The notes below the pieces were generated by a model. That model ran no database searches, was not told the origin of the DNA, and was given only the letters and a program-made list of their open reading frames with translations. Below, piece after piece: positions 17,753 through 60,955 of a stretch of DNA of 64,000 nt. The DNA lies in IMG/VR virus record IMGVR_UViG_3300017919_000016, positions 1-64,000 of that record, one strand, 5' to 3'. A program made the translations under genes and the position numbers. The stretch comes from a virus (lineage: Duplodnaviria > Caudoviricetes). Positions within the stretch are counted from its first letter, which is position 1; each line of letters starts with the position of its first letter.

Positions 17753-17852
17753 AGAAAAAACTCCTCTCTTTGTAGTGGCATACTCAGTTACTAGGTATGT
17801 TCACTCTGTACAGGATATAATGCAAGTACTATATCCTAATTGAGGGAGTTTT
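17753..17852 (-). promoter_or_regulatory. LSR-C leader (promoter-like motif plus anti-SD)
   Basis: Near-identical to 4348-4447. Confidence 0.6.
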
Positions 17853-17907
17853 TATCTTTCTATGAAAAGCCTCTGTTATTTAGACGCTTATTTTCAGTAT
17901 TTGTTAT

Positions 17908-19575: not shown

Positions 19576-19577
19576 AA

Positions 19578-21218: not shown

Positions 21219-21293
21219 ATTCGCCCTCCTTCCTTTATCCTTTTTCAAGCTGACGGCCTTTTTGTTTATCAATCAAACTCTTTAAAATATAAA

Positions 21294-25019: not shown

Positions 25020-25108
25020 TGTTCTTCCCTCACTTTCGTAATTTTTTGTATATAAAAAGACGCCCCCACATTGAGGACGTCTGGCAACTCTACTTTGTTT
25101 GATGTTTT

Positions 25109-29683: not shown

Positions 29684-30450
29684 CGAAATGTAACGTTAAA
29701 ATTTTCAATGTAACAATCGTTCTGTACCATATACAGTTAATATTGTTAAATTATCCTTTTTATTGAGCCTATTTTATGTCACTTAAAAACTGCTCTTAGA
29801 ATATCAGTAATTTCATCAAACTGAATACCTTCTGCATAGGGAAACTTCTGCACATATGATTCCCAAATTGTCTTAAGATCTTCACTTTCCTCTATATCTT
29901 TTAAATACTTCTCACTATTCTCTAAATAGATCAATGTGTTTCTTTCTTCAGCTTTCTTTCGAATTGCGTTTCTTAGACTTTCTAAATCAATATCATTTCT
30001 TCGAAGTGTTAGAAGAATATAAACATCATAATAATCCCTAGCTCTGGTATTTGCCACATTCCGCGCCAAAATAGACTCAATCTTTTCTGCAAGAATTGTA
30101 TTTAAATTATACGCTTTTATTGAAATATCACGTTCTTCAAACATAAGCTTAAACGAATATTCTACTTCTCTTGGTATGATTACATCTCCAGTAGTGATGT
30201 CAATCTTCATATTGACTCTGATCGTAAAGAACTGGGCTTCTACAGAGACTCTGAAATCATCATAGTCACTAACATCATGGATGTTTTTAATAGCTTTTAG
30301 CCTAAAAATTACATTATCATCAAGCTCTATCGATAGAATCTCATTTAATATTTCTTCTATTGCCTCTCTATTGACAGGAATCCCTTTTATCGTTGTATCC
30401 ATGTCCATAGTGCTTCTCATATCTATACCAACCATAGCTGCAATCAAGAA

Positions 30451-32036
30451 AGTCAAGTCCGATTTTGTGTGTAAAAACATATTCGGTACAAATAGTAAAT
30501 ATATGTCAACGCCGAGTTGCTAAAGTGAGTTCGGAGAATACGGGCTTAGTTTCTCAAGTGATCGCTGAGCACTGGTTCAATATCCTAGCCTAAATAGAAA
30601 GGTCAAATCCAAAACTGTGAAGAATGCAGCTGCTCTTACAGAGGCCGCAGACAGCTCTTTGAAGCCGACAAAATGTTATCCTCAATAGAGACCGCTTAAG
30701 CTCCTACAGCAAGGCTCTTCGGCTCATCTATCACTTCTTTTCTTTTGCTTTGCTCCTTCATAAAGGTATGGTACTCCTCCATATCAAAGTATCTCTTACC
30801 TGAGATCCACCTCTCATGTATTTCGAGCAACACCGATCCAATGATGCGGACAATACTATCATCGTTTGGGAAAATGCTGATAACCCGCTCACGCCTCCGC
30901 ACTTCTCTGTTCACACGTTCCTGCATATTAGTGGTGCGCAGTCTCTTTCTGTATTTTGAGGGGTAGTACAGTACGTGGGTGGCATCGTCAAAACCTCGAT
31001 CAAGGATTTCGATTGCCTTAGGTGCTTTATCTTCAAAGGTAGCAATGATTTCATCTCGGATTTCACGTGCGATATCAATCTTCGGTGCGGTGAACATCGC
31101 TTGAAGCATTTCTTTGAGTTCAGGACGAATGGACTTCGGCGTTTTTTCGAGAATGTTCCTCGAGAAGTGTGTCTGGCATCGCTGCCAAGACGCTCCGACA
31201 AAATGCTCCTCTATCGCAGCCACTAGACCTTTATGATCATCTGAGACAACCGTTTGAACACCACTGATCCCTCGCTCTTTCAGGTTTTCAAATAAGCATG
31301 CCCAAGTGTCCTTCGTCTCTGTTTTTTCAACAGCAAACCCTACGATTTCTCTATAGCCGTCCTCATTGATTCCACTTGCGATCAGAACTCCGCGGGACTT
31401 CACCCTGCCTTGATGTCGCGCTTTTGTGTAGAGGGCATCAACAATTAGGAAAGGGAACTTCTTGTCGTCGAGCGGGCGATTTCTGAAACTTTCTACGATG
31501 GGATCTAGACGCTTGGCTAAGTCGGATATGGTACTTTTGCTGAAGTTTTTGCCGCATAGCGTTTCAGTGATTTCTCCAACTTTCCGAGTGGATACACCAT
31601 TGACGTACATTTCCATCATAGTCAACACCAGAGCTTGCTCACTTCGTTGATAGCGCTCAAAGAGTTCTGTGCTAAAGTCGCCATTTCGTAGCCTGGGAAC
31701 GGTAAGCGTGAGCGTACCCACGCGAGTCGTCAGTTGACGCTCTCTATGCCCGTTACGATAGGCTTTACGCTCGGATGTTCTTTCATATTTTTCCGCTTGG
31801 ATCTGCTCTGTGATTTCGGTTTCTAATACTTGATTAAGAATCTCCTCATGGAGTGTCCTAAATGCTTGATCTCTACCGTCGATTGAAAAAAGCCCGTGCA
31901 CGATCTCGCTGTCTACGGTAAAATGAAATTGAGCCATATCTGTCTCCTTTCGGTCCTAATAGTTGTCTGTCAACTTCTATTATACCGAAGCTTCGGATGT
32001 GGCTCATCCTTTTTACACCATTATATGGACTCTATC
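30451..32036 (-). mobile_element. IS256-family insertion sequence with 8-bp target duplication ATCAAGAA
   Basis: Duplication at 30443-30450 and 32037-32044; ends GATAGAGTCCATATAATGGTGTAAAA and AGTCAAGTCCGATTTTGTGTGTAAAA resemble IS256 inverted repeats. Confidence 0.95.
30696..31937 (-). CDS. IS256-family (Mutator-type) DDE transposase
   Basis: RNG.R.R.L.TRVG.L.L.VPR.R, GVSTRKV, VDA, SDDH.GL, WQRCQ.HF.RN, TTN..ER.N.E.RRR. Confidence 0.96.
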   Translation of the reverse strand: MAQFHFTVDSEIVHGLFSIDGRDQAFRTLHEEILNQVLETEITEQIQAEKYERTSERKAYRNGHRERQLTTRVGTLTLTVPRLRNGDFSTELFERYQRSEQALVLTMMEMYVNGVSTRKVGEITETLCGKNFSKSTISDLAKRLDPIVESFRNRPLDDKKFPFLIVDALYTKARHQGRVKSRGVLIASGINEDGYREIVGFAVEKTETKDTWACLFENLKERGISGVQTVVSDDHKGLVAAIEEHFVGASWQRCQTHFSRNILEKTPKSIRPELKEMLQAMFTAPKIDIAREIRDEIIATFEDKAPKAIEILDRGFDDATHVLYYPSKYRKRLRTTNMQERVNREVRRRERVISIFPNDDSIVRIIGSVLLEIHERWISGKRYFDMEEYHTFMKEQSKRKEVIDEPKSLAVGA

Positions 32037-32202
32037 ATCAAGAATCCACCTTTGAGGATAAAATTGTCTTTGTACTTTGAAATCGAAATTCTTTCTAGAA
32101 GCCTTTCCATCATAAAATTCTGAAGCACAGTATTCGCTATCAAATTATTCTCTTTAGCCACATTGTTAATCCAGTCTTTCAATTGTCTAGGACTACCAAC
32201 TT

Positions 32203-32802
32203 TCATGTCAACACCTCCATGTATTTTCGAACCAAATCTTTAATATTAAAAACATCGGCATACTTAAGTAGTTTAGAATAATCTGCTCCGGGAGTTTTCA
32301 TATATCTTTTGACTGCTTCATTCACTAAATCAGTATCGAGATGTTCTTTCTTTTTTAGGCAGTCACAAATGGTTCTTTCTTTATCATATACATAGACTTG
32401 ATGCCCAAATGGTGTCTCCATGGTAATCCTACCAACTGTATAAAGCTTCTCCGCAATATAAAAGAACTTATATTTTTCTTTCTCTTTCAGGAGCCTAGTA
32501 TTGTATCCTGATGGAATTGTCAGCATTAATTGGAAAGGTGTCCTATCTGTTAAATCGTGAAAATATAATGCTGTCTCATGGGAAAAGATACCTTTTTTAC
32601 ATCTGTACTGAGTTAAAAAGTACTCATCTTCCATCTGATCAGGATCCATATATAACCCTTGCTCAAGTTTTTCAATTTCACCAACCTGATACATACGTTG
32701 TAGAGTTTTATAAGCCACACCAGCTTCTTTAGCTTCACCTGATGTCAAAATACCTTTGTTGTCTTTCAATAGTTTAGTCACTAAATCCTTTTGAGTCATC
32801 AA
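32203..32802 (-). CDS. abiEi: AbiEi-family antitoxin
   Basis: FSHETALYFHDLTD and YDKERTICD motifs; 4-nt overlap with abiEii. Confidence 0.88.
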   Translation of the reverse strand: MMTQKDLVTKLLKDNKGILTSGEAKEAGVAYKTLQRMYQVGEIEKLEQGLYMDPDQMEDEYFLTQYRCKKGIFSHETALYFHDLTDRTPFQLMLTIPSGYNTRLLKEKEKYKFFYIAEKLYTVGRITMETPFGHQVYVYDKERTICDCLKKKEHLDTDLVNEAVKRYMKTPGADYSKLLKYADVFNIKDLVRKYMEVLT

Positions 32803-46543: not shown

Positions 46544-49500
46544 TTACTTTTTTATCGGGAGCTTCCAATATTCCCTGCGATTATCTCTTGCATTCCATCT
46601 CACACCAACACTTAGTTGATACTCAATAACGTCATCAGCTAGTAAGGTTCCTGACTTGATTAACCTCGTGAAAATATCTCTTCTAAAGGGAACTCTCTCT
46701 TTCTTGGGATTGAATGGCTCCAAAGCAAGGAGTTCTTTCCTCAACCACTTTAACTCTTCACTAAGTGCACTCACTCTCTCCTTTCTATCTTCATAGCTTC
46801 GAATCTTATCGTGAAGATCCATGATATGGTCAGTAATCACTTTGATCGCACCGGTATCCTCGCCATGTTTCTTTCCCTCTTCAACAGTCTCGTAGAGTTT
46901 CTGGTAGTAGATTTCGATTTCTTTTTCTAAACGTTCAAGTTCTTGCTCCTCGTGAGGTTTCAGGCTAACCTCTTCGATAACTTCATTTACCAATTCCGAT
47001 AACTTCTTCGAGTTTTTCATTTCCTGCAGCATTGCCATGAAAGTGTGTTCGATGTTCTCTTCCCTGATAGCTTTTTCAAAACACTCCTCGGAATGGTTCT
47101 TAACAACAGAAGCTCTACACCGCCAATAATGCTTCTCCAACCCCTTATGGCTTGAAAGATGTACAATCGGACAGCCGCAAATTCCGCATTGAAAAACCTT
47201 GAAGAACTCATCTCTAGTGTGCCGGTTTGTTTTCGTGATTTTCCTCGCCTTACTATTGATGATTCTCTGCACCTCATCCCACTTTTCTTTATCGATAATA
47301 GCTTCGTGATTATCTTCAATATAGTACATTGGCAGTTCACCATTGTTCGGGACTCTCTTCCCGGTAATGGAGTCGCTTGTGTACTTTCTTTGATAAAGCA
47401 CATCTCCGATGTATGCTGGATTATTTAACATTCTACGAACTGTAGTGACCCCCCAAGCACTATTATTCTTAGGACTTGGAATTTTATCCTCCGTTAGGCC
47501 TTTTGCAATACCCAGCATGCTTTTCCCTAATAGATACTCATCAAAGATTCTTTTAACCACGGCAGCCTTCTCGCTGTCAATTTCCCAGCTTCCATCTTTA
47601 CCATAATAGAATCCATAAGGCAGTGTGCTGAGTTTAACAGATCCCCTTTCTGCTAATTTACTTCGACCCCATGTAAGGCTTTCACCAAGACTCCGCGACT
47701 CTTCTTGTGCGAGCGCGCTGTATACAGTCAGTAAGATTTCACCATCTTTTTCAGCTGTATCTATCTCTTCTTTCTCGAACATTATAGAAACACCTAGAGC
47801 CTCTAATTCTCTCACATACTCCAAGCAATCTACAGTGTTCCTAGCAAATCTCGATATAGACTTGGTGATGACGCGATCAATTTTTCCTTTTCTGCAATCT
47901 GAAATCAACTCTTGAAAACCATCTCGATTCTCCGCCTTCGTTCCTGATACCCCCTCGTCATAATAAACCTTAATCAGTCGATAATCAGGATTCTTTAACA
48001 CAGCATAAGTGTAGTAGGCCATCTGAGCTTCCAACGATCCTAATTGCACTGGATCATCAGTACTAACTCTTGCATATACAGCGATTCTAACCTTTTTCTT
48101 GGCAGGCGGGCTATGTTGTTTACTTTCCCTGATTTCTCTTCGTATACGATCGATAATATTCTCTGAAAAGTATTTTTCAACTCTAACTGCTTGCATGTTC
48201 TCACCTCTTACTTTAGGAAATGGTGGATCTATTTCTTCCACGCCTTCAATTTCACATCCCTCTACTAAGATGCGATATTGCTCCTTATTTTGGGATTTTA
48301 GTATCAAATCTTTCCCCATCAATTGTTCCCGCTTTAGCTCCATTTCCACTTTTCTATTCTCACAAGTCCCAACAGTCGTATGTAGATCATCATACCAATG
48401 CACCTGGTAATCTTCTAAAGAGAAAATCCTGATTTCCAAAATCCACGCTCTAAGAACATCAACATTAGCTCTCTCTATAAAATCTTCAGGAGATTTTGCT
48501 TTTCGTAATAGTTCAATCGCGAGATCACGATACTTCCGATCTTCTTCTATCATGGTCGCTAGATGCTCGAACTCCACTATTGCTCGCTCCACCTTTTCTT
48601 TTTCAATGATTGCTAATTCATCTTCCGATGCTCGTCTTTGATGCTCTTTCGCGATTTGTAATTTGCTTAGTAAGCTAAGGCGATGAAGTTCAAACCGATC
48701 ATTTTTGTTCACCCAAATCAATTCATCCTTCATCACTTCTAATATTTTAGGATTGTTGAAATCATACCTCTTTCTGATAATTTCCTTCATCAGTTTGAGA
48801 ATCTTTTTATCGGTTAACCGTGGAGAATCACATAATCTCGCTTGTTTTTGCTTCACGCTGCAGACCCATTCAACGCGATTCTTTTTTCTGCTCTTGTGAT
48901 AGTTCACATCGCATAGGCCGCAACTTATCCTCTTCGAACAAGAGTGATGTATCTTTTTGCCAAGTCCTTTTTTTCTCCTCTTCTCCGAGAGCATATCTTT
49001 TGCTTTTTCAAAACACTCAGGTGAAAGAATTCTGGGATAGGCATTCTCAATGAGATACATATCCTTCTCACTATCTTTAAGAAATTCGACTTTTTGAGAG
49101 AGGGAACTGTTATATTGATTTGTTATCTTCTCACCAATATAAGACCTATTCTCTAAGATATTCAGTATCAATGTATGCGACCAAATAGTATGCCCACTAA
49201 CGGTCTTTACACCTCTATCCGTTAAGAGTTTTAGAATTTCAGCGATTTTCATACCTCCAATAAAGAGTTCAAAGACTTCTTTTATCACCTCAGCTTCTTC
49301 TTCGTGAATGACTGCCACCTGTCCCTGTGTTGTCTTTACAATTTTATAACCGAACTGTCTTCTATAGATTGGATTACCGGAAAGGATTCGTTTGTTTTGG
49401 CCCCACTTACTATTGTGGGCTATGCTCACAATTTCATCTTGGCTGATCGCCGCCAAGGCTGTTAGAAAGAACTTGTTTTTTCTTTCCATACTATTGATGT

Positions 49501-49900
49501 TTTCTTTCTCAAAAATTACCGGTATTCCAAGATCACTTAAATGGTCCACAACTTCCAGAAGATCTTTCGCGTTTCTAGAAAACCTAGAGATGCTCTTCGT
49601 TAACACCAAATCTATCAATCCATCGTCGCAATGTCTAAGGAGTCTTTTGAACCCGGGACGACCATCTATCGTTACACCTGATATTTCCTTATCATAATAT
49701 AAACCCACCAACTTATACTCATCATGACTTCTGATGTAATGGGTGTAATATTTTAACTGATTCTCGAGAGAGTTGATTTGCTTATCACCGCTCTGTCTAC
49801 TAAGCCTGCAATAGGCAGCAACTCTTAACTTTCCATTACTCTCTTTTTCTGGCTCTTCTTTTTCCTTTGGCCATAGCACTTCAACCGTCTTTTTCCTCAC
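46544..49900 (-). CDS. LSR-C: tandem double large serine recombinase without the C-terminal wHTH
   Basis: AAYCRLS and AVYARVS units, two zinc ribbons; GTG start at 49900 after SD AAAGGAG. Confidence 0.92.
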   Translation of the reverse strand: MRKKTVEVLWPKEKEEPEKESNGKLRVAAYCRLSRQSGDKQINSLENQLKYYTHYIRSHDEYKLVGLYYDKEISGVTIDGRPGFKRLLRHCDDGLIDLVLTKSISRFSRNAKDLLEVVDHLSDLGIPVIFEKENINSMERKNKFFLTALAAISQDEIVSIAHNSKWGQNKRILSGNPIYRRQFGYKIVKTTQGQVAVIHEEEAEVIKEVFELFIGGMKIAEILKLLTDRGVKTVSGHTIWSHTLILNILENRSYIGEKITNQYNSSLSQKVEFLKDSEKDMYLIENAYPRILSPECFEKAKDMLSEKRRKKGLGKKIHHSCSKRISCGLCDVNYHKSRKKNRVEWVCSVKQKQARLCDSPRLTDKKILKLMKEIIRKRYDFNNPKILEVMKDELIWVNKNDRFELHRLSLLSKLQIAKEHQRRASEDELAIIEKEKVERAIVEFEHLATMIEEDRKYRDLAIELLRKAKSPEDFIERANVDVLRAWILEIRIFSLEDYQVHWYDDLHTTVGTCENRKVEMELKREQLMGKDLILKSQNKEQYRILVEGCEIEGVEEIDPPFPKVRGENMQAVRVEKYFSENIIDRIRREIRESKQHSPPAKKKVRIAVYARVSTDDPVQLGSLEAQMAYYTYAVLKNPDYRLIKVYYDEGVSGTKAENRDGFQELISDCRKGKIDRVITKSISRFARNTVDCLEYVRELEALGVSIMFEKEEIDTAEKDGEILLTVYSALAQEESRSLGESLTWGRSKLAERGSVKLSTLPYGFYYGKDGSWEIDSEKAAVVKRIFDEYLLGKSMLGIAKGLTEDKIPSPKNNSAWGVTTVRRMLNNPAYIGDVLYQRKYTSDSITGKRVPNNGELPMYYIEDNHEAIIDKEKWDEVQRIINSKARKITKTNRHTRDEFFKVFQCGICGCPIVHLSSHKGLEKHYWRCRASVVKNHSEECFEKAIREENIEHTFMAMLQEMKNSKKLSELVNEVIEEVSLKPHEEQELERLEKEIEIYYQKLYETVEEGKKHGEDTGAIKVITDHIMDLHDKIRSYEDRKERVSALSEELKWLRKELLALEPFNPKKERVPFRRDIFTRLIKSGTLLADDVIEYQLSVGVRWNARDNRREYWKLPIKK

Positions 49901-50006
49901 AACAAAAACTCCTTTCACTAGAGCCCACCTGTAAGGTCCCAGGTATGTTATTAATGGCTCTAGTCCAGAGATAATGCAAGTACTATCTCCAGAATGAAAG
50001 AAGTTC
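49901..50006 (-). promoter_or_regulatory. LSR-C leader (anti-SD AACTTCTTTCA, TACTTGCA loop)
   Basis: Pairs with TGAAAGGAGTT; inner stems GGAGATAG/TTATCTCT and ACTAGAGCC/GGCTCTAGT. Confidence 0.6.
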
Positions 50007-50093
50007 TTTTTCTCGATCTGTTTCTCATGTCATGGCATTAGGTTTTCTTAGGTTTTGTAAGTCGAGAGTTGTGAATCTCTGTTTCAGAAGAAG

Positions 50094-51776
50094 CTATCTT
50101 GATTTCTTTTTCTGCGCTCTTCTCCTCGCGTCTACTTCATAAGAGGCTCCGCATTTGAGTCTAAACTCTACTCGCCATTTATTGTAGACGATTCCTTTCT
50201 CAAGAACTTTGGCCAGGATGTCTGGAACAAAGTCTTCTTCGGGGCCTTTGATGTTCTCTAAGACTTCAATTAGGATTTTCAGATTCTCTTCAAGGTATTC
50301 ACTTTCCTTTTTGTTCTCACTCAACCCATCATACTCCATTTGGAGAATCTCCTGTTCGTATATTAAGTGTCGCATAGTCGCCTCGTAAATGACCTCATTC
50401 GATCCTGTTGATCTGGCAGCCATTGCAGTAATTTTATCTGTAATCCTATCGATTTGGGTGCCTAGTTCATTTAGCCTTCTGTCTTCTTCCTCTGTTAATG
50501 AGGCTTCTTCAATCGCCAGTTCCACATCTTCAATCAGTTTATCTCTGTCATTTTTAATATCAAAGAGAAGTTTCATGAAGGCCCTTTCTAACTCTTCTTC
50601 CCAAACATAACTGCATTTACAATCTTTAAAATTTGGATCTCGTTTGGAAGCGACTCTACAGTGCCAGGCCGTGAACTTCACAGGTGCTCTATCCACTCCG
50701 CAGTGAGTCGTGAGCCGCCTTCTGGTCACCGGCCTTCCGCACTCTCCGCAAAATAGTTTATTTGAAAATGGCGCTGCCCCGCTATAAGCCATGTTGTATT
50801 TATTGTCTGGATCCCTAAACATCTTACTACGTCTATTCAGCTCTTCTTGTACCTTTTCCCAATCTTCCTCGCTGATGATAGCTGGATGGTGATTTCTAAT
50901 ATAGTACTGCGGCTGATGCTCTTTATTCCTCACTCGCTCATGGGTCAGAAAATCCACCGTCACGGTCTTCTGTGCTAGGCAATCACCTTTGTATTTTTCA
51001 TTTCGTAGAATTTTGTACACAGAATCTGAAGTCCAGGTCTTCTTATTTCTCGCTGTCCTAATCCCATCTTTCATCAGTTCCTTGGCAATTGTAGGTGTAC
51101 CTTTCCCTTCAAGTACCTCACGGTATATTCGCCTAACCACTTCAGCCTGCTTCTCATCGATGATAATATTTCCATCCTCGTCTTCTGTGTATCCTAGAAA
51201 GTAGGTCGTTGGAACATGGGCTTTGCCCTGTTGGAACCTTTTCTGAACACCCCACTTCGTGTTTTCTGAAATGGACCTCGACTCTTCCTGGGCCATGGAT
51301 GAAAGAATAGTGAGGAACAGCTCACTTTTACTATCTAACGTGTCGAGGTTTTCCTTTTGAAAGTAAATCCCAATGCCGAGGTTCTTCAGCATTCTGATGT
51401 AGTGTAGACAGTCCAGGGTGTTCCTCGCAAATCGGCTGATGGATTTGGTGATGATGTAGTCGATTTCTTTCTTCTGGCAACGCTCGATCATCCGATTAAA
51501 CTCAACCCGGTTCTTAGTTGAAGTCCCTGACAGGCCCTCATCAGCAAAGATCTCTACGAGTTCCCAGTTAGGGTTCTTCTCTACATATTCTTTGAAGTAA
51601 GATACCTGTATATCGTAGCTGGTGGCCTGCATGGCTGAGTCTGTAGAAACACGTACATAAACCCCAATTCTTTTCTTTTGACCATCAAAGTTCTCTTCAT
51701 TCCTCGAGGTCCTAGTTCGAGCTGGGATGATGCTGACCCTTGATGCTGGCAGCCTTCGTGTTTGTTCTGTATTCAT
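50094..51776 (-). CDS. LSR-B: large serine recombinase
   Basis: GVYVRVS, TKSISRFARN, CGECG. Confidence 0.93.
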   Translation of the reverse strand: MNTEQTRRLPASRVSIIPARTRTSRNEENFDGQKKRIGVYVRVSTDSAMQATSYDIQVSYFKEYVEKNPNWELVEIFADEGLSGTSTKNRVEFNRMIERCQKKEIDYIITKSISRFARNTLDCLHYIRMLKNLGIGIYFQKENLDTLDSKSELFLTILSSMAQEESRSISENTKWGVQKRFQQGKAHVPTTYFLGYTEDEDGNIIIDEKQAEVVRRIYREVLEGKGTPTIAKELMKDGIRTARNKKTWTSDSVYKILRNEKYKGDCLAQKTVTVDFLTHERVRNKEHQPQYYIRNHHPAIISEEDWEKVQEELNRRSKMFRDPDNKYNMAYSGAAPFSNKLFCGECGRPVTRRRLTTHCGVDRAPVKFTAWHCRVASKRDPNFKDCKCSYVWEEELERAFMKLLFDIKNDRDKLIEDVELAIEEASLTEEEDRRLNELGTQIDRITDKITAMAARSTGSNEVIYEATMRHLIYEQEILQMEYDGLSENKKESEYLEENLKILIEVLENIKGPEEDFVPDILAKVLEKGIVYNKWRVEFRLKCGASYEVDARRRAQKKKSR

Positions 51777-53404
51777 TAAGCATCTCCCCCTTCTTTAAGA
51801 CTGACCTCTGTTTCCTCACCAGTAACCCACACAATTCTCAATAAAAAAGATGACTCCGCTATTACACGTGTCATCCATGCCCTTAAAAATTTTGTGCTAT
51901 CTAGTTTTTTGTATAACTCATTGATAGGATTCGTTGACTCTTTAACTCTACCAAGCTCAGCAATAGCGTCTCTTCTGTATGGATCATCTGAATCAATCAT
52001 TGCCCACCAAGGTTCTCTTTCAGATATAGTTTTTTCGATAGCTATTCTCTGATTCTCAAACTCAGTACTATCTTTGTTTTCAATAACTGCCATGCTTTCT
52101 GCGAAGAGGGCTTTTTCCAGTTCTAGGCGCAGTTTATTCTGTTCCCCGTCTCTTAGCACTTCTGTGTTTAAGAGGTTCTTCTCAAGTTGAATGATTTGAC
52201 GTTTTGCAGGTGCCTTTGGATCAATCTCAAACTTCTCTATAAAGGCTTTCTTCAGAGCCTTAAAAATCGTCTCATCTTTGATACCATCCATTTTACAGAG
52301 TCTTGCGCTTTTCATGCGTGTGCTACAACGCCATGTGACATATCCTCTGGTCTTGTATCTATGGTAATTTGCACCACATTCACTGCAGACAATTCTTCCG
52401 GTAAAATCATAGCGTTTACTGGGCCCGCGCTTAACCCCTTTCGTTTTAGGTTTAAGCATCTTTTGTGCACTTTCAAATGTATCTCTATCAATAATCCCTT
52501 CATGATGATCTTTGATGTAGTATTTCGTTTTTTGTCCTTTGTTCACTACCTTCTTATGGGTTAGATAGTCTTCTGTAAATGTCTTTTGACAAACAACATC
52601 CCCTACGTAACGTTCATTTCTAAGGATTGATGTAATGGCAACGTTGGTCCAGTCATTTCTCCCGTTTGCCTTCACATAGCCATTTCTGATAAAGTGATTC
52701 GCAATTTCAGTCGGGGTTCTTCCTTCTAGAAACTGTCTGAAAATCTCGCGTACCGCGGCTGCTTCCTTTGGATCTATCACCCATCGTTTACCCTTCACCT
52801 TTTTATAGCCAAGAATTCTAACAAACCTGGCTTCGCCTTGCTCAAAGCGCTTTGATGTAGCCCAAGTGATGTTTTCTGACGTGCTTCGGCTTTCCTCTTG
52901 AGCTGTTGCTGCGAGCATCGTGAGTATAAATTCGCTCTGCATGTCCCCTGTGTAGAGATTTTCTTTCTCGAACAGGACATAGATCTTTTTCTCTCGGAGC
53001 TCTCTAATTACTTTTAAGGTGTCCATGACATTTCGAGCAAACCTTGAGATGGATTTGCAGAGGATCAAGTCGATCTTACCAGCTTTGGCGTAGCGGATCA
53101 TTTTATTGAACCCGTGCCTACTTTCCATCTTCGTTCCGGATTTGCCAAGGTCTGAAAAGACTCCAGCAAACTGCCACTCAGGGTTTGAGCGGATGTAGTT
53201 GGTATAGTGGACGATTTGATTATCAAGTGAATTCATTTGAAGCTCTTCTTCCGTACTAACCCTGCAATATGAAGCAACTCTTAATCTTTCACTATCGATC
53301 GCTAGGTTTCCCAAACTAAGTTCACTAGAACGATTTCTTGACGCTCCGTACCTAAAAGTTTCATTGTCCATGTCTAGTGTTCTCGCTGATAAAGTTTTCT
53401 CCAC
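51776..53404 (-). CDS. LSR-A: large serine recombinase
   Basis: ASYCRVS, CKSISRFARN, CSECG; TAATG-coupled to B. Confidence 0.93.
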   Translation of the reverse strand: MEKTLSARTLDMDNETFRYGASRNRSSELSLGNLAIDSERLRVASYCRVSTEEELQMNSLDNQIVHYTNYIRSNPEWQFAGVFSDLGKSGTKMESRHGFNKMIRYAKAGKIDLILCKSISRFARNVMDTLKVIRELREKKIYVLFEKENLYTGDMQSEFILTMLAATAQEESRSTSENITWATSKRFEQGEARFVRILGYKKVKGKRWVIDPKEAAAVREIFRQFLEGRTPTEIANHFIRNGYVKANGRNDWTNVAITSILRNERYVGDVVCQKTFTEDYLTHKKVVNKGQKTKYYIKDHHEGIIDRDTFESAQKMLKPKTKGVKRGPSKRYDFTGRIVCSECGANYHRYKTRGYVTWRCSTRMKSARLCKMDGIKDETIFKALKKAFIEKFEIDPKAPAKRQIIQLEKNLLNTEVLRDGEQNKLRLELEKALFAESMAVIENKDSTEFENQRIAIEKTISEREPWWAMIDSDDPYRRDAIAELGRVKESTNPINELYKKLDSTKFLRAWMTRVIAESSFLLRIVWVTGEETEVSLKEGGDA

Positions 53405-53641: not shown

Positions 53642-54622
53642 CTATTCGAACTTCATATAGCCATCAAATCCTGCCGTTTTCAAACGGGCCATGAGATCCT
53701 CTGCATTCTTCTTTTCGCCGAATGCGCCCGCCTGGACCCGATAGAGTTTTTTGTCTCGCTTTTTCTCTGGCTCAACCTCCACACCAGCGCTGATCATGTC
53801 AAGGTTGTCTTTCGCTACCCAAGTCATAACCCCAGCCTTTTCATCCATGGTGCTTTTCAGAATGGTTTTTCCCAGTAGGACACATTCTTTGTCTCCTTTA
53901 ACCACTGGTTTACCACCGGACTCATCTTGGGTGATTAAGTGGTAGTTCCACTTCACCCAGTTTGGAATAATGGGACCGCCTGGATAGTAGGTTTTGGCAG
54001 ATGCCTTGATTTCTACAATATTACCAACTCCAAAGACCGTTTTACTATCATCTTCATTTTCGAGTTCTCTTTTCACAGCAGCTCTAAAGGAGTCCATATT
54101 TTCTCCATGCTTTGGAAACCAGTGCCCAACATCAGAATGATTAGAAGCAATGCCCTTCTTGTTTCCTTCTGCATGGCTGATGATATCCTTCTCGGTGAGC
54201 CCATATTTTCTGCAAAGGAACACGCAAAGATCCACTGCATTTTTCCAGGCCGCTCTAAAATAAGCCTCATGCTTTTTTGCGTCATAGCCCACCATCTGAT
54301 TTCTAGAATAAGAAAACCCACCCGGCTCGCATATCTCAAAGCCGATGTGGGTATTGTTTGCATCTCCTCCGGCATGCCAACCCCTGTGATTCCAAGGAAG
54401 GTACTGCCAGATTTCTCTATCATCCAGGAAGGCATGAACACAAACCTGACGTTTGATCTCTTTCGCTTTATAGGATTTGTTCCACCAAATGAACCAGTCA
54501 CCTGCCATCACACCGGGAGTTGCCGTGGAGTGGACCATGATGCCCCTCGGTGTGATCTTTCTCCCTGCGGTATAGCAATCATTTCTAGTCATGTACTTGA
54601 TTCTCAGATTATTTAGTCCCAT
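53642..54622 (-). CDS. Endolysin amidase with SPOR-like domain
   Basis: Paralogue of 21452-22432; overlaps the holin stop. Confidence 0.9.
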   Translation of the reverse strand: MGLNNLRIKYMTRNDCYTAGRKITPRGIMVHSTATPGVMAGDWFIWWNKSYKAKEIKRQVCVHAFLDDREIWQYLPWNHRGWHAGGDANNTHIGFEICEPGGFSYSRNQMVGYDAKKHEAYFRAAWKNAVDLCVFLCRKYGLTEKDIISHAEGNKKGIASNHSDVGHWFPKHGENMDSFRAAVKRELENEDDSKTVFGVGNIVEIKASAKTYYPGGPIIPNWVKWNYHLITQDESGGKPVVKGDKECVLLGKTILKSTMDEKAGVMTWVAKDNLDMISAGVEVEPEKKRDKKLYRVQAGAFGEKKNAEDLMARLKTAGFDGYMKFE

Positions 54623-55025
54623 CCTTATCACCTCCATCCTTTAGCTGCTCTAGGATGTCTCTCAGCTTCTCTGGGACCGGTAGGCCGAGTCTTGTGGCGT
54701 TTTCGACGATACTGATTCCTTCATTGGATAGATAGAAGAAGATCACCGCAGTCCTAATGGCGCTGCCATCTCCGATAATATTCTGATCAATAATGTGTGC
54801 CACTCCTACCAAAGAAAAAATCACTACCTTCTTAAAGATGCCCTGAGCGCCTACGTCGCTAGATAAGTGCTTTTCAAGCACCGCACACATAACACCCATG
54901 AGATAGTCAACCACTACAAAGGCAATCAGGGCATATAAAAAACCATCGTAGCCTCCTAGAAAATAACCAAGCCATCCACCAACCGCCGCAAACATCATCT
55001 GAATGAAATTCCAAACTTCTCTCAT
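54609..55025 (-). CDS. Phage holin
   Basis: Paralogue of 24603-25019. Confidence 0.92.
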   Translation of the reverse strand: MREVWNFIQMMFAAVGGWLGYFLGGYDGFLYALIAFVVVDYLMGVMCAVLEKHLSSDVGAQGIFKKVVIFSLVGVAHIIDQNIIGDGSAIRTAVIFFYLSNEGISIVENATRLGLPVPEKLRDILEQLKDGGDKDGTK

Positions 55026-55057
55026 TTATATCCCTCACTTTCATAAATTCTCGTATA

Positions 55058-55087
55058 TAAAAAGGCGCCCCCACAATGAGGACGCCT
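55058..55087 (-). terminator. Intrinsic terminator upstream of the holin
   Basis: AGGCGTCCTC..GGGGGCGCCT stem followed by Ts; homologue near 25054-25082. Confidence 0.75.
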
Positions 55088-55116
55088 GGTGTTTCTATTC
55101 TGTTTGATTGTTTCCC

Positions 55117-56265
55117 TTAATAGGGTGCGAAGTAAATATACCCACTTGCCTTTATATAAAAGCCATCACCCGGAATGTAGATGGCCCCATCGAATGTATC
55201 GTATTGACTTACCGCTAGATCAGGTTGATCCACCCCTTTCCAGCTGATACCATCATCGGACAAATACATCATCTTCTCAGTGAACAAAGCGTATTTCTTC
55301 CACTCATTCATCCAGATGATATTCCTTGGATTAGAGATGTTATTACTAGCGAGGTCACCGACCCATGAAAGATTCGTCTCCGTCATCTGTGTGGCATCGT
55401 CACTCATTACAGAGAGTTTCACATTGTAAATATAATCTCCACCCGTTTTTCTATAGTTATACTTTGTCACAAATAGCTTTTCATTTACTGACTGGATGAA
55501 CATGTATCTTGTATCATTCTCGTCTTCTGGTATTGTCGTGATCCACTCATCTGGAGCCATTGAGTTAGCAATAGCTATTGATTTATCGCCGCCTACCACA
55601 CCTACAAAGCTTCCTTTATGCGCTGTTAGATATTTGAAGATAGGCACCTTTTTTTCTTCAGTTGGTTCGATAAGAGTCCACTTAGTTTTCTCTTCTAATG
55701 AATCAAAGCTATGATAGATTGGAGTTTTCTCATACCACCAACTAACGACGCCACTTGATTCTTCCGCATCATATGCCGCTGTCGTCATGGCATTATAGGC
55801 TCCTTCACAGAAGCCCGCGTTATACCAAGTGATGCCATCATGAGAAGCGATGATATTAGCGAGTCCCGTAATCTTGGCCAGGAAAACTCCATCATCCGCG
55901 TAAAGTATCTCTGGTTCTCCATTTTCCCACCAAGAACAATCCACCATTGTCCACTCGCCACTATCTTTATCAAAATATGAAACGTAAGGAGCTTTTGCTC
56001 TATACACAGCGATCTGAGCACTTCCGTTATCATAAACATTGATCTGCTTTTCATCACCCAGCATCTCGTAACCAAAGTCTTCAAGGGTTAACTTTTCCCA
56101 GCTAAGTGAGTTCAGTCCAAGGTTTTCTACTGCATCATCGTCAAGATACTCTATCGCCTTAGCTTCATCAACTGGTGTGGTGTCAAAAAACACCATCGCG
56201 ACGATTGCAATAAAAGCGACAATCATCAAACTGATGATGAGCTTACCTTTACCACTTTTTATCAC
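55117..56265 (-). CDS. Membrane-anchored or secreted paralogue of the tail beta-propeller protein
   Basis: Basic N-region plus hydrophobic helix (KGKLIISLMIVAFIAIVAMVFF), then colinear homology to 56438-57511; SD AAAGGAG. Confidence 0.85.
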   Translation of the reverse strand: MIKSGKGKLIISLMIVAFIAIVAMVFFDTTPVDEAKAIEYLDDDAVENLGLNSLSWEKLTLEDFGYEMLGDEKQINVYDNGSAQIAVYRAKAPYVSYFDKDSGEWTMVDCSWWENGEPEILYADDGVFLAKITGLANIIASHDGITWYNAGFCEGAYNAMTTAAYDAEESSGVVSWWYEKTPIYHSFDSLEEKTKWTLIEPTEEKKVPIFKYLTAHKGSFVGVVGGDKSIAIANSMAPDEWITTIPEDENDTRYMFIQSVNEKLFVTKYNYRKTGGDYIYNVKLSVMSDDATQMTETNLSWVGDLASNNISNPRNIIWMNEWKKYALFTEKMMYLSDDGISWKGVDQPDLAVSQYDTFDGAIYIPGDGFYIKASGYIYFAPY

Positions 56266-56345
56266 TACTTCTCACCGCTCCTTTCAAATGGATAACACAT
56301 AGACACCATCTATGAACTCAAATATCCTACGATATTCTGACATCT

Positions 56346-56375
56346 ATTATAAAATATATAACTATATTTTTCCAA
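56346..56375 (-). promoter_or_regulatory. Sigma-A-type promoter for 55117-56265
   Basis: TTGGAA-N18-TATAAT in an AT-rich spacer absent from E1. Confidence 0.6.
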
Positions 56376-56437
56376 TCAATTCGAGCGTAAAACCATCTTT
56401 TTAATCGCCTCACTCAGCTTAAGAAATGTAGTTTTCA

Positions 56438-57511
56438 TTAGTATGGGGCATAGTAAACATAACCGCTAGCTTTAGCATAAAAACCATCACCAGGAATGTA
56501 CATGGCACCATCGAAGGTGTCATACTGACTTGTGGTGAAACCCGGCTGTTCAACTCCCTCCCAGTAAAGACCATCATTGGAGACACAGAGCATACTCTCT
56601 TTTAGAAGTGCGAACTTTCCCCAGTCCTCCATCCAGATGATGTTCCTTGGATTTGGGATATTGTTGTTGGCCAGATCCCCTACCCAGGAAAGATTGGTCT
56701 CGGTGATCTGTGTGGCATCATCACTCATCACACAGAGCTTTACATAGTAGGTATAATCACCGCCCACATTGGTGTAGTTGAACTTCATCACAAAGAGGAC
56801 ATCATTCACAGACCTGATAAACATATACCGGGTGTCGTTCACATCCTCTGGTATAGTCGTAGTCCAAAGACCGGGAGTGGCTGAACTGGCTATTGCTATG
56901 GATTTGTCTCCACCAACTACGCCGACAAAGTTTCCCTTATGGGTGGTCAGGTATTTAAAAATCGGTACCGAAGTTCCGTCAGATCCAACCAAGGTCCATG
57001 CAGTTCTTTCCTCTAAAGAGTCAAAGCTATAGAAGACTGGTGATTTGTAGTACCACCAACTGACGATACCGGAGCCTCTGGCCATATCATAAGCCCCACA
57101 TGTCATTGCATTATAAGCTCCGGGACAATACCCCGCATTATGCCAAGTGATGCCATCAAAGGATGCGATGACATTGGCAAGGCCCACAATCTTGGCAATA
57201 AACACACCATCTGCTGCATAGAGAATCTCCGGCTGGCCATAGCTCCACCAAGGAACACTGACCACTGTCCACTGCTTTGTGGTCTTGTTCCAGTAGGACA
57301 TGTAGGGAGTCTTTGCAAAGTACACAGCAATTTGAGCGTTGCCATTATCGTAAACGTTAATCTGCTTCTCGCTGCCATACTGGGTGTAGCCAAAGTTATT
57401 ATAGTATTTCTTTGACCAACTCAGTGTTGGAATGGTGAAAAGAACCTCTCCTCGTCCACCGAAAGCTGTCCAGATGGCTAGGGTGTTATTAAAAATATGA
57501 TCATAGCTCAT
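56438..57511 (-). CDS. Tail-associated beta-propeller-like protein, putative receptor-binding protein
   Basis: Near-identical protein to 25109-26182. Confidence 0.6.
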   Translation of the reverse strand: MSYDHIFNNTLAIWTAFGGRGEVLFTIPTLSWSKKYYNNFGYTQYGSEKQINVYDNGNAQIAVYFAKTPYMSYWNKTTKQWTVVSVPWWSYGQPEILYAADGVFIAKIVGLANVIASFDGITWHNAGYCPGAYNAMTCGAYDMARGSGIVSWWYYKSPVFYSFDSLEERTAWTLVGSDGTSVPIFKYLTTHKGNFVGVVGGDKSIAIASSATPGLWTTTIPEDVNDTRYMFIRSVNDVLFVMKFNYTNVGGDYTYYVKLCVMSDDATQITETNLSWVGDLANNNIPNPRNIIWMEDWGKFALLKESMLCVSNDGLYWEGVEQPGFTTSQYDTFDGAMYIPGDGFYAKASGYVYYAPY

Positions 57512-57526
57512 GGATTCAGCCCTCCT

Positions 57527-58654
57527 TTATACTTTTGTGACGCTGGTGATTCTTCCGCCGCTATCCACGGTGTAGTTATATGTTGCTGTTGTTCCGTCTG
57601 CGTATTCAATATAAAAACTCATCATATCCACCGTTAAAGTGGATACTTCTTTCAAAAGAAGCTCCGAGAAAATATTATCCAGGGTGATGCTTGTAATACG
57701 GCCCCCGCTATCTGTGGTGTACTGGTACTGGGCATGATACTGGTGAGTATCACCCTTTTCCACAGTGTAGGTCACATCAATGGTTGTTTCCGTCACTACA
57801 AGATTGGAAACTATGGTATAGGAGACCCCTAGGTCATTCACCTGTGTTTGAATGTCATCCACCGAGCTTCCCACATTATTTAAAGAACTCTCTATCCGGT
57901 AGAAGGTATCTGAAATGCTGGGTCTATACCTCCCAACTTCCACCCGGATGTTGTACCTATAAAAGGGATTGTATTCTAGGGAGATGATTCTCGTCTTCAC
58001 GTTGATTCCTAAGGGGTTAAAAACAATCTGTACATTATCTCCTACAGCAAGGTTCAAGAGCTTAAAGAATGAGATGTCATAGGATGAAGCATTCTCCCTG
58101 GAATCATGGGATACCGCTACGTTGGTTACATTCTTTGAATCCATCACCGGGATATAGTCAGTGCTTCCCCTATGACTTCGAATGTTGATGTTGTAACCAT
58201 CGTACTCAATTTCCCCGCCAAGGATAGCAATATATTGCATCAGAGCAGCCCTTCTTGATACTTCCTGATTTATCTTCATAGTGACACTCTCTGTGAAATC
58301 TACAATCCCAGCATTAAATGTTGTGCCTGAAAGAACCTGCTCAAGTCCTGCAGCCGGATCTCCGGTGAAGTCAAACTCTGTGATGTTATACATCTCATGA
58401 TTCAGGAGATAGGATACGTGCTCACAAATCACTGAACAGATAGGAAGGCTGCCCTGAAGACTCTTTGAAATCTGAACAATCTCAAAATACTGATCATCCA
58501 GTTTTGCGATCTGTTTTACCTTAAGAGCCAGTGCTGATTTTGCGAGCACCGTAAAAGAAAGTGTATACTCCCCTTCTAGGGTTTCTCTGACAGTAGCACT
58601 CATGACTTTTTTAATGTTTTGAAGCAGTGTACTACCTGCATAGATTTCAATCAA
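57527..58654 (-). CDS. Phage tail hub/spike protein
   Basis: Paralogue of 26187-27326. Confidence 0.8.
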   Translation of the reverse strand: MIEIYAGSTLLQNIKKVMSATVRETLEGEYTLSFTVLAKSALALKVKQIAKLDDQYFEIVQISKSLQGSLPICSVICEHVSYLLNHEMYNITEFDFTGDPAAGLEQVLSGTTFNAGIVDFTESVTMKINQEVSRRAALMQYIAILGGEIEYDGYNINIRSHRGSTDYIPVMDSKNVTNVAVSHDSRENASSYDISFFKLLNLAVGDNVQIVFNPLGINVKTRIISLEYNPFYRYNIRVEVGRYRPSISDTFYRIESSLNNVGSSVDDIQTQVNDLGVSYTIVSNLVVTETTIDVTYTVEKGDTHQYHAQYQYTTDSGGRITSITLDNIFSELLLKEVSTLTVDMMSFYIEYADGTTATYNYTVDSGGRITSVTKV

Positions 58655-58675
58655 GGCTAATCCCTCCTCTCTGTT

Positions 58676-60955
58676 TTATGATCCTGCCACTCCAAGATTT
58701 CTAACGGTGACGGTATTTTGATTCCACTGTAGTTGTGCTATGACTCTTGTTAGAATATTTCCATCAATTGTAAGTGGAATGGTCACATCAAAGACTGCAC
58801 CTTCAGAACCACCGAGACTTCCTGAAACTTGAGAGTTCAGATCGAGATCAAAGTCTGTAGGTATAGCTCCTTGAATGTCTTTTTCAACCCCACTCATGGC
58901 TTCAGTGAAGCCCTCTCCAATACCTTCACTCATGTTGGCACCAATCCCAGCGAATACTTTTGATGGTGAGCGGATTCCAAGAACACCTTTAACACCTTTA
59001 ACGATACCACTGACCATGCTATCCACTTTTCCTTTCAGCCAACCGATCATGGAGGAGATACCGTCCCATAGACCTCTAGCGATGTTTTTTCCCACATCAT
59101 TCATAGAAGGAATGGCTCTTCCCAGTCCTGTCACAATTGCCGAGATGATTTGTGGAAGCTGACCGACAAGCTGCGGAATGGCTCTGATGAGTCCTGCCGC
59201 CAGCTGGATGGTCAGCTGAATGCCCATCTCAATAATCTTAGGTAAGTTATTTGTGATGAAGGTAATAATGCTATTGATTATTTGAGGGAGGGCATCTATT
59301 AGCTTCGGCAGTGAGTTGATCAGACCCTCGGCAAGGCCACTGATGATCTGAAAGGCTGCATCAAGGACCAGGTCTAAGTTGTCGATGAACGTCTGGGCAA
59401 TGAGAATCACTGCTTCAACAATGGAAGGAACCAGCTCAGGTAGCGCTTCACCAAGTCCCGTAGCAAGGGTAACAATCATCACAAGGGCTGCTTCTACAAG
59501 TGCTGGCAGATTGGCGATGATTCCATCTACTAAAGTCAGCACCAGTTGGAGTGCGCCTTCAGTAATCTGAGGTAGAGCTTCGATGAGTCCACCTACGATG
59601 GTCATAATAATATTTGTCGCCGCTTCAATAAGCGTTGGCAAGTTATCGATGATGCCACTTACTAGAGCAAGAACAAGGTCCGGTGCCACTTCGGCAATAG
59701 CCGCTATGAGTCCAGTCACCACCTCTAAAATCTGCGGAAGAATCACTGCAATCTGATCCACCGTTTGCCTGGCCCCTTCTTTTAACGCTTCTGCGGCTCC
59801 TTCTTGGCCAGTAATTAGTCCGGTAAGCCCATCAAGCACCATGGTGAAGCCAGGAAGGAGCTGCGAGGTGATGTTGTTTTTCACCCCTGCAAAGGAACGA
59901 GTGAGGTTATCCATGGCATCGGTGTAACCCACCGCCGCATCAATGGATTCATCACTCATCACTAGGCCAAGTTCACTGGCTTTATTCTTCAGAGCATCTG
60001 TGCTTTCTGCTGTTTGATTTAAAAGGGCTCCAAGCTCTACAGAAGACGTGCCAAGAAGGTCATTGGCAATAGCAGCTTTTTCGCCTTCATCTGCAATCCC
60101 CTGTAGTCCTCTAACGGTCATCTCAAAGACTTCTTCTCGAGATTTCCCTTGAAGGTCCTCCATAGAAATGCCGAGTCTTTTAAACTTTTCAGTAGCAGAA
60201 GCACTCCCATTAATGGCATCATCCACGGTGCTATTCAGTTTCTTCATCCCGGCTTCAAGAGATGAGATGCTGGCACCATTTTGAGAAAGTACATACTCCC
60301 ATTCCTGATAGCCTTGTCTCGAAAGGCCCAGTCTTTGACTGGCTTTATCCACTACATCTCCGGCGGCAGCTGCATCATTTGCCATATCATACAGCTTCTT
60401 TCCCGCACCCACTGCTGCAGTTCCAATGGCTGCCATGGCCACACCAATACCGGCGGCTACACCTTTCATGACAGATCCTAGTTTTTCAAGCTTCCCACCG
60501 GAATCATCTGCTACTTTAGCTGACTCTTTAATCTCATCGCCAAACTTATCAGCTTCTTTACCGGCATCATCAAATCCATTGCTGGCTGCATCGAGAGCTT
60601 TATTGTTTTCATCAAGCTCCCGCTCCATCTTGTTAAGATCTGCATTTGCATTATTCAGCTGAATCTGCCAGGCCTTGGTTCGCTTGTCATTCTCGCCAAA
60701 GGAGTCGGCGGCATTTTTAAGGGCAGCTTCCAGGGTGCCGATTTTGTTTTTCTGGGCATCGATCTCTTTATTCAGGACTTCATTTCTTGCTGTCACTGCC
60801 TGTAGAGATTTATCCTGTTTATCAAACTGAGATGTGACGAGCTTCATCTCAGAACCAAGCACTTTGAAATCTCTGTTGATTTCACGAAGGCTATTCTTGA
60901 ACTCCTTTTCCCCTTCAATACCTATTTTTAGGCCAAAATTGCTATCACCTGCCAT
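58676..60955 (-). CDS. Tail tape measure protein
   Basis: Paralogue of 27348-29627 with the same length. Confidence 0.92.
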   Translation of the reverse strand: MAGDSNFGLKIGIEGEKEFKNSLREINRDFKVLGSEMKLVTSQFDKQDKSLQAVTARNEVLNKEIDAQKNKIGTLEAALKNAADSFGENDKRTKAWQIQLNNANADLNKMERELDENNKALDAASNGFDDAGKEADKFGDEIKESAKVADDSGGKLEKLGSVMKGVAAGIGVAMAAIGTAAVGAGKKLYDMANDAAAAGDVVDKASQRLGLSRQGYQEWEYVLSQNGASISSLEAGMKKLNSTVDDAINGSASATEKFKRLGISMEDLQGKSREEVFEMTVRGLQGIADEGEKAAIANDLLGTSSVELGALLNQTAESTDALKNKASELGLVMSDESIDAAVGYTDAMDNLTRSFAGVKNNITSQLLPGFTMVLDGLTGLITGQEGAAEALKEGARQTVDQIAVILPQILEVVTGLIAAIAEVAPDLVLALVSGIIDNLPTLIEAATNIIMTIVGGLIEALPQITEGALQLVLTLVDGIIANLPALVEAALVMIVTLATGLGEALPELVPSIVEAVILIAQTFIDNLDLVLDAAFQIISGLAEGLINSLPKLIDALPQIINSIITFITNNLPKIIEMGIQLTIQLAAGLIRAIPQLVGQLPQIISAIVTGLGRAIPSMNDVGKNIARGLWDGISSMIGWLKGKVDSMVSGIVKGVKGVLGIRSPSKVFAGIGANMSEGIGEGFTEAMSGVEKDIQGAIPTDFDLDLNSQVSGSLGGSEGAVFDVTIPLTIDGNILTRVIAQLQWNQNTVTVRNLGVAGS

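Follow-up and report, generated by a model that had tools for sequence, protein, structure and literature searches.

We asked why a prophage would carry, next to the gene for a putative tail protein, a second copy of that gene whose product appears to be fitted for the cell membrane. The question is raised by a 64,000-nucleotide (nt) stretch of viral DNA, here called the window, which is positions 1 to 64,000 of the 91,964-nt IMG/VR provirus record IMGVR_UViG_3300017919_000016. The window holds two related prophage-like elements, E1 and E2, both on the minus strand; the rest of E2 (record positions 64001-91964) was covered as loci L004 and L005. In E2, the gene for a 357-amino-acid (aa) protein, here called the virion-type form, is followed by the gene for a 382-aa protein, here called the anchored form. 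Our answer is that, in the 382-aa protein, the phage may export a copy of the propeller at its distal tail end, one that would hide the phage receptor from incoming particles. The features on which this answer depends are the following.

56438-57511, minus strand: virion-type 357-aa gene; N-terminal peptide (residues 1-26) at nt 57434-57511, propeller from residue 27 to 357
56266-56437, minus strand: 172-nt spacer between the virion-type and anchored genes, with a promoter-like site and a Shine-Dalgarno sequence
55117-56265, minus strand: anchored 382-aa gene, GTG start, paralog of the 357-aa gene; helix (residues 6-26) at nt 56188-56250, tether (residues 27-50) at 56116-56187, propeller (residues 51-382) at 55120-56115
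55055-55087, minus strand: terminator-like hairpin and T-run between the anchored gene and the holin gene, common to E1
54609-55025, minus strand: holin (Pfam Phage_holin_4_1, 2.5e-45), the downstream border of the cargo slot
25109-26182, minus strand: E1 virion-type gene, without an anchored partner, 96% identical to the E2 virion form

Two propellers with different N-termini

The original prediction, made from the sequence alone, had described two open reading frames on the minus strand, the second a colinear copy of the first. Both reading frames are present, and the copy is a true paralog: in BLASTP, the 382-aa protein is 68% identical to the 357-aa protein (81% positives) over 332 aa, with one gap and an E value of 8e-166. 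The two are colinear from the first propeller strand through the final residue, and the difference is confined to the N-terminus. The virion-type protein begins with MSYDHIFNNTLAIWTAFGGRGEVLFT, and the 382-aa protein begins with MIKSGKGK, followed by a 19-residue hydrophobic stretch and then an acidic stretch. The mean Kyte-Doolittle hydropathy of the 19-mer is 3.13 in the 382-aa form versus 0.85 in the virion form. In an AlphaFold2 model of the 382-aa form (mean predicted local distance difference test [pLDDT] score, 89), residues 6-26 are a helix, residues 28-49 are a disordered acidic segment with a pLDDT of <50, and the propeller scores about 95. The whole seven-bladed propeller is retained, including its closing strand. 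Translation, hydropathy, and model thus agree with the earlier claim that the virion-type N-terminus had been swapped for a basic and hydrophobic signal anchor.

The helix has lysines ahead of it and acidic residues behind it in each of the four anchored lineages, which is the positive-inside pattern. This arrangement predicts that the N-terminus lies inside and the propeller outside the membrane. None of the anchored forms has a lipobox, as there is no cysteine within or after the hydrophobic segment. The many changes to Glu, Asp, and Lys reported earlier were also found: the 382-aa form has 58 acidic residues (D+E) versus 31 in the 357-aa form, and 30 basic residues (K+R) versus 22. Every anchored homolog is shifted in the same way, with 49-58 acidic residues compared with 20-36 in the virion forms (about 20-27 more). 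In four anchored/virion pairs, the anchored forms have 0-2 cysteines and the virion forms 2-4, as expected of exported Bacillota proteins. The charge gains in the 382-aa form are spread over all seven blades and both faces, which does not support a conserved binding face opposite a charged virion-contact face, a point that the original prediction had proposed to check.

The 357-aa form is modeled as a seven-bladed, four-stranded beta-propeller (AlphaFold2; pLDDT, 91.6; 28 strands), in which strand 33-35 closes blade 7 and S-x-D-G-x-T-W motifs occupy C-D loops (117-123 and 311-317). The paralogy of the two proteins, their fold, and the predicted topology of the anchored form are established. 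Residues 1-26 of the 357-aa form have low model confidence, but no other part of the family is conserved as well. Their motif, M-x-Y-x-x-x-F-N-x-P/T-L-x-I-W/F-T-A-F, is kept in relatives with a strongly diverged propeller (library-search E values, 1e-20 to 1e-43), and these relatives sit in the same slot, between a Tal-like gene and a holin gene. That the peptide is kept while the propeller diverges fits a docking role, and we infer that the 26-residue peptide docks the 357-aa propeller onto the tail hub. The 382-aa form is without this peptide and so would be unable to join tails.

The 357-aa gene is always the last tail gene before the holin gene, and the order tape measure, Tal-like, 357 aa, holin was found in the window and in all related loci. 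The other genes of this order in E2, and the lysis gene that follows the holin gene, are as follows.

58676-60955, minus strand: tape-measure gene of E2, directly 5' (upstream) of the Tal-like gene
57527-58654, minus strand: Tal-like tail hub protein, 375 aa (Pfam Prophage_tail, 5.7e-14, and Prophage_tailD1)
53642-54637, minus strand: endolysin (Pfam Amidase_2 and SPOR)

The Tal-like protein matches NCBIfam TIGR01665, "phage tail spike / putative anti-receptor," at 29.9 bits, over its cut-off, and its orthologs across Bacillota are 71-98% identical. The 357-aa protein is a putative virion component and a candidate receptor-binding protein. Its structural neighbors are generic propellers (Ycf48, GH74, WD40, and integrin alpha), the best being Ycf48 (Foldseek E, 3e-9; template-modeling [TM] score, 0.52-0.6); in a viral structure library, it matches propeller domains inside annotated tail-fiber proteins with TM scores of 0.5-0.6. 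Neither propeller matched Pfam, PHROGs, NCBIfam, PADLOC, or PDB sequences. A match to DUF5415 was below threshold and was regarded as chance. BNR/Asp-box and Ycf48-like propellers likewise have seven four-stranded blades closed by an N-terminal strand and S-x-D-G-x-T-W-like motifs in C-D loops. The fold of our proteins matches theirs, but the motifs are one residue short of S-x-D-x-G-x-T-W, there is no Pfam BNR match, and the identity is 8-13%; only the fold is shared, and it is no guide to function.

Distribution and history of the anchored gene

The comparison took in about 100 related loci and covered 53 loci from representative genomes and loci from a viral collection. All homologs belong to prophages of Bacillota, with hosts ranging from Bacillaceae to Clostridia, Syntrophomonadaceae, and Heliorestis, and nearly all are of the virion type. 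The family is small, with 28 hits among 1.84 billion representatives. The original prediction had suggested a search for similar pairs in other prophages, and such pairs were found in L006, L007-L009, L010, and L065-L068. The anchored forms are listed here with their identity to the E2 copy.

L010: 70% identical; after the virion form, before the holin
L006: 60% identical; after the virion form, before the holin
L007-L009 (Schinkia azotoformans): 56% identical; after the virion form, before the holin
L065-L068 (viral collection): 94-98% identical; after the virion form, before the holin
L080: 94% identical; at a contig end, with the upstream neighbor outside the sequence

The virion form, anchored form, holin, amidase, and serine recombinases occur together in at least four diverged phage lineages, Schinkia azotoformans included. 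The anchored form was found in 0 of the 53 representative-genome loci. It is absent from E1, as had been claimed: the E1 gene order is that of E2 minus the 382-aa gene, and the E1 357-aa gene is followed by the holin gene after 89 nt. A gap of about 70-100 nt at this place is found in E1 and in most of the related loci. The anchored gene is also missing from the near-identical phages L083, L084, L089, L118, L015, L016, and L051, even where the virion gene is 96-98% identical to that of E2. Elsewhere, the slot between the 357-aa and holin genes contains genes for MerR, mercuric reductase (MerA), and an SBF-family transporter (L018:6962-11017 and L030:6956-10782; two species), an ABC-3C defense system with CTD10 and DUF2326 (L022:7337-10214), or unknown genes (L043). 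Since the anchored gene, the mer set, and ABC-3C share one slot, this is a site for cargo. The 382-aa gene has the character of an accessory, moron-type cassette in a widely distributed family of Bacillota prophages. The GC content at third codon positions (GC3) is 0.42 in the anchored gene, 0.51 in the virion gene, and 0.48-0.49 in the holin and amidase genes.

The earlier suggestion of a moron made from a duplicated tail gene therefore stands as to the paralogy, the cargo slot, and the lower GC3. However, the duplication was not made in E2, and the gene is found in at least four diverged lineages. A recent duplication inside E2 was ruled out: the nucleotide identity of the two genes is even, at 72-75%, there is no conversion tract, and synonymous divergence (dS) between the paralogs is saturated.

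The junctions of phages with and without the gene differ in detail. Except for its final ~18 nt (..YFAPY, stop; 25109-25130 compared with 55117-55140 and 56438-56460), the E1 357-aa gene is like the E2 virion gene. These final ~18 nt, and also the ~26 nt that separate the gene from the hairpin (25083-25108), resemble the 3' end of the E2 anchored gene instead. L083, which is also without the anchored gene, has another junction, with a virion-type tip, TGAAAAC, and the hairpin. The E1 and L083 junctions look like the footprint of cassette loss or gain by recombination between paralogs.

Against close relatives, the ratio of nonsynonymous to synonymous divergence (dN/dS) was 0.11-0.15 for the anchored gene and about 0.02 for the Tal-like, 357-aa, and holin genes. 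Thus, the anchored gene is functional and under purifying selection, and it evolves several times faster than its neighbors. The dS of the anchored gene was 0.07 versus 0.24-0.97 for the flanks in the closest relatives and 0.25 versus 0.62-1.16 in L067. This is 4-9 times below the flanks, which points to recent cassette exchange between related phages. The cargo position of the gene, its presence or absence among near-identical phages, its purifying selection, and its recurrence in diverged lineages are as firmly established as the paralogy.

The anchored forms may have one origin or several. Maximum-likelihood trees group the anchored forms (Shimodaira-Hasegawa-like approximate likelihood ratio test [SH-aLRT] support, 95-99). 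In approximately unbiased (AU) tests, trees pairing the E2-type anchored forms with the E2-type virion forms were not rejected (P values of 0.22-0.63). At position 276 and at an indel of three residues, the anchored forms agree with their local partner, and each anchored copy is nearest to virion forms of its partner's lineage, the partner itself ranking 1, 2, 1, and 9 of 46. The phage anchors are of two unrelated sequence types, one in E2 and L010 and the other in L006 and L007. These data would fit a double origin, with acidification by convergence, as well as a single origin followed by paralog exchange.

A third type of copy, 475-478 aa long, has a different anchor and a 120-residue linker (L011:4303-5739 and L125:1747-3174). 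In L011, its neighbors are pfk and the gene for a class A penicillin-binding protein; lexA is close by, and phage genes are absent. This chromosomal copy is under purifying selection (dN/dS, 0.2) and branches inside the virion-type radiation. Its N-terminus is strongly hydrophobic, and we checked it against prepilins: the Pfam N_methyl match was 11.6 bits (cut-off, 21.2; E value, 0.22), and the Glu at position +5 of the prepilin motif is absent from the 475-478-aa forms, which are thus not type IV pilin-like in this respect.

Proposed receptor masking and the alternatives to it

What, then, could the anchored copy do? We propose, with a probability of roughly 0.4, that the exported propeller masks the phage receptor from the cell side in the lysogen, which would amount to superinfection exclusion. 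In this mechanism, a short basic N-terminus would remain in the cytoplasm, and the full propeller would be held outside the membrane by a single helix and an acidic, flexible tether about 22 residues long. With the fold and the best-conserved loops kept, the propeller may bind the same cell-envelope ligand as the tail tip. Were that ligand occupied from the cell's own side, incoming particles of the same phage family could not engage it, and at lysis progeny would be spared loss to debris or to sister lysogens. Export of the 382-aa protein is a prediction, and its part in exclusion is a proposal. That the protein occupies the receptor at all, whether in the lysogen or late in infection, we consider slightly better than an even bet.

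Such an action has precedents. The retroviral envelope protein causes receptor interference in the infected cell. Filamentous-phage pIII is listed under receptor inactivation (PMC11436027), and receptor interference is described for herpesvirus gD (PMC4810564). In each case, a membrane-anchored form of the virus's own attachment protein makes the receptor unavailable, as proposed here. However, with pIII, gD, and the retroviral protein, one gene product serves both virion and exclusion, or an env gene has been endogenized, whereas the tailed phage E2 keeps a separate, dedicated paralog with the virion-docking end replaced. In tailed phages, Llp of T5 and the lipoproteins named Cor in T1, phi80, and N15 are envelope proteins that bind the phage's own receptor from the cell side, block superinfection, and protect progeny, and the T5 llp gene adjoins the receptor-binding protein gene (PMC9586334; bioRxiv 10.64898/2026.03.26.714494). 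This is the same action as that proposed for the 382-aa protein. Llp and Cor are small Gram-negative outer-membrane lipoproteins unrelated to the receptor-binding protein; in contrast, the 382-aa protein is a predicted type II membrane protein of a Gram-positive host, a full-length tail-protein paralog without a lipobox. A dedicated exported paralog would therefore, if the proposal is true, differ from these known receptor-level exclusion proteins of tailed phages. Among Gram-positive temperate phages, Ltp of Streptococcus thermophilus phage TP-J34 and Sie2009-type proteins are expressed from prophages, surface exposed, and membrane tethered, and they stop infection at or after adsorption (PMC3952083). 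Ltp is a lipoprotein from the lysogeny module, unrelated to a tail protein, whereas the 382-aa gene lies at the tail-lysis junction and derives from a tail gene, and its product has no lipobox. Full-text literature searches returned no account of a dedicated anchored tail-protein paralog acting in exclusion in a tailed phage.

Masking in the lysogen calls for expression there, and the original prediction had given the 382-aa gene its own TATAAT promoter. The spacer does contain a promoter-like site, TTGGAA-18-TATAAT at 56375-56346(-), with the -35 element at 56375-56370 and the -10 element at 56351-56346. It is the best sigma-70-like match of the region (10/12 positions), and its core is conserved: a 30-nt block, TGGAAAAAyATAGTTwTnTATTTTATAATA, is shared by E2 and L010, and the remaining spacer has diverged and is unalignable. 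The Shine-Dalgarno sequences AAAGGAG (56284-56278) and GGTGAG (56276-56271) lie ahead of the GTG start; this codon is conserved, and so is a Shine-Dalgarno sequence. The number of promoter-like sites across the region was not above chance (10 found versus 7.3 expected). No Rfam family was found in the spacer or leader, and the fold of the 5' leader was not significant (z score, -0.6). The gene is thus a candidate for expression from its own promoter in the lysogen. The terminator assigned to the gene is also present, as a hairpin 3' of it, at 55087-55063(-), with an 11-pair stem (7 G-C pairs) followed by TTTTTAT. A homologous hairpin lies right after the E1 357-aa gene (25058-25082), and the hairpin also follows the anchored gene in L010 and L007. 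Thus, the terminator ends the tail operon and is not special to the 382-aa gene. There was no terminator-like site between the 357-aa and 382-aa genes.

These signals bear on whether the same ligand is occupied in the lytic cycle instead, by a protein made after induction that stops progeny from readsorbing to debris and to cells undergoing lysis. T5 Llp has been assigned two roles, and this is one of them. The 382-aa gene is placed between the late tail genes and the lysis genes, in their orientation and 5' of the shared terminator, so that transcription probably reads through from the tail operon regardless of the promoter. Between the 357-aa and 382-aa genes, no terminator-like site was found. 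However, a conserved promoter-like block would be superfluous for a purely late gene, the other genes of the slot (the mer operon and ABC-3C) are typical lysogen-expressed cargo, and a differently anchored copy persists without surrounding phage genes. We consider a solely lytic role quite unlikely.

Several observations weigh against masking in the lysogen. E1 and E2 reside together with virion forms that are 96% identical; thus, exclusion is not absolute, or it arrived after E1. The top-face loops, the usual ligand site of a propeller, are the least conserved class between the two forms, with 27% identical columns versus 48% in the strands. Alternatively, the anchor may be a long signal peptide that is cleaved off, and in all lineages a small-x-small motif occurs 10-20 residues past the helix. 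The promoter is putative, being recognized by its agreement with the consensus. The 357-aa protein, a putative virion and receptor-binding protein, matches no solved phage receptor-binding protein. For a protein that would determine host range, its conservation is also unusual (45-98% identity between Bacillaceae, Syntrophomonadaceae, and Heliorestis), in keeping with its dN/dS of 0.02.

A different kind of answer is that the propeller was recruited from the tail as a surface lectin, an adhesin, or a glycan-acting enzyme for the host, a case of lysogenic conversion in which infection is no longer affected. The nearest structural and language-model look-alikes agree with this, being BNR/Asp-box, DUF6242, and sortilin-type propellers, many of them lipoproteins, and GH74 glycosidases; the protein-atlas look-alikes scored <0.9 and are leads only. 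The anchored copy also evolves 4-7 times faster than the virion copy, its surface changes are all over the propeller, and chromosomal anchored copies stand in a housekeeping context. However, in phages the anchored gene always adjoins its virion paralog and co-varies with the partner's lineage. Profile searches detected no catalytic motif or glycosidase family, and the Asp-box-like motifs in the C-D loops are structural. We therefore hold a benefit to the host unlikely, if worth keeping in mind.

The last alternative is that the protein binds virion parts or the wall, either as a decoy for incoming tails that triggers, for example, premature ejection or as a helper in assembly or as an aid to the lysis cassette. 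Its gene adjoins the holin and endolysin genes, and propellers commonly bind other proteins. However, the 382-aa form is without the N-terminal peptide, which is the most conserved and presumably the tail-binding element of the family. Tail assembly is cytoplasmic and the propeller is predicted to be outside the membrane, and most related phages lyse without the anchored gene. This alternative is very improbable; a part of the total probability goes to none of the readings considered here.

If receptor masking is correct, such genes would be recognizable from sequence alone, as an anchored copy adjoining a tail gene, and the soluble ectodomain could be used to probe for the receptor of these phages, whose family is spread over spore-forming Bacillota. 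The chromosomal copy would then represent a host that tamed a viral attachment protein for defense. It is doubtful, although conceivable, that Bacillota tailed phages and at least one bacterial lineage have repeatedly made the tail-tip propeller into a tethered, receptor-occupying immunity protein, with three unrelated anchors; this would be a bacterial counterpart of receptor interference by envelope proteins and of domesticated env genes in animals. The matched virion/anchored pairs are a natural experiment on which propeller surface carries receptor specificity.

Neighboring genes

The module of Tal-like, 357-aa, holin, and amidase genes (window positions 53642-60955; loci L012-L122) has a protein identity of 45-98% from Bacillaceae to Syntrophomonadaceae, Pelotomaculum, and Heliorestis. 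A module for the tail tip and lysis is not usually so conserved (dN/dS, ~0.02) or spread over so many hosts. There is no gene for a distal tail protein (Dit) between the tape-measure and Tal-like genes (window positions 57527-60955), and only two genes follow the tape-measure gene. The C-terminus of the Tal-like protein carries two repeats of the motif Y-x-Y-T-T-D-S-x-G-R-I-T-x-I.

Serine recombinase genes follow the E2 amidase gene. After each element (window positions 46544-53404 and 13823-21272), there are two large serine recombinase genes and then an open reading frame of 1124-1309 aa. By Pfam, positions 46544-49918 hold two complete recombinase units, and locus L007 is arranged alike. 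In E1, an AAA_21 ATPase and RloB pair is inserted between the holin and amidase genes (22497-24441), and about 2 kb are likewise inserted at the holin-amidase junction in loci L013, L024, and L051. Farther upstream in E1 (29779-32802), the tape-measure gene is separated from the tail genes upstream of it by genes for an AbiEii toxin and an AbiEi antitoxin, which are themselves split by the gene for a transposase of the IS256 family (Transposase_mut). The rest of E2, in L004 and L005, codes for a family A DNA polymerase, a DUF2800 nuclease, a VapE-like primase/helicase, an SNF2 helicase, and a ParB-methylase, and further for an amidoligase and an S-adenosylmethionine (SAM) synthetase.

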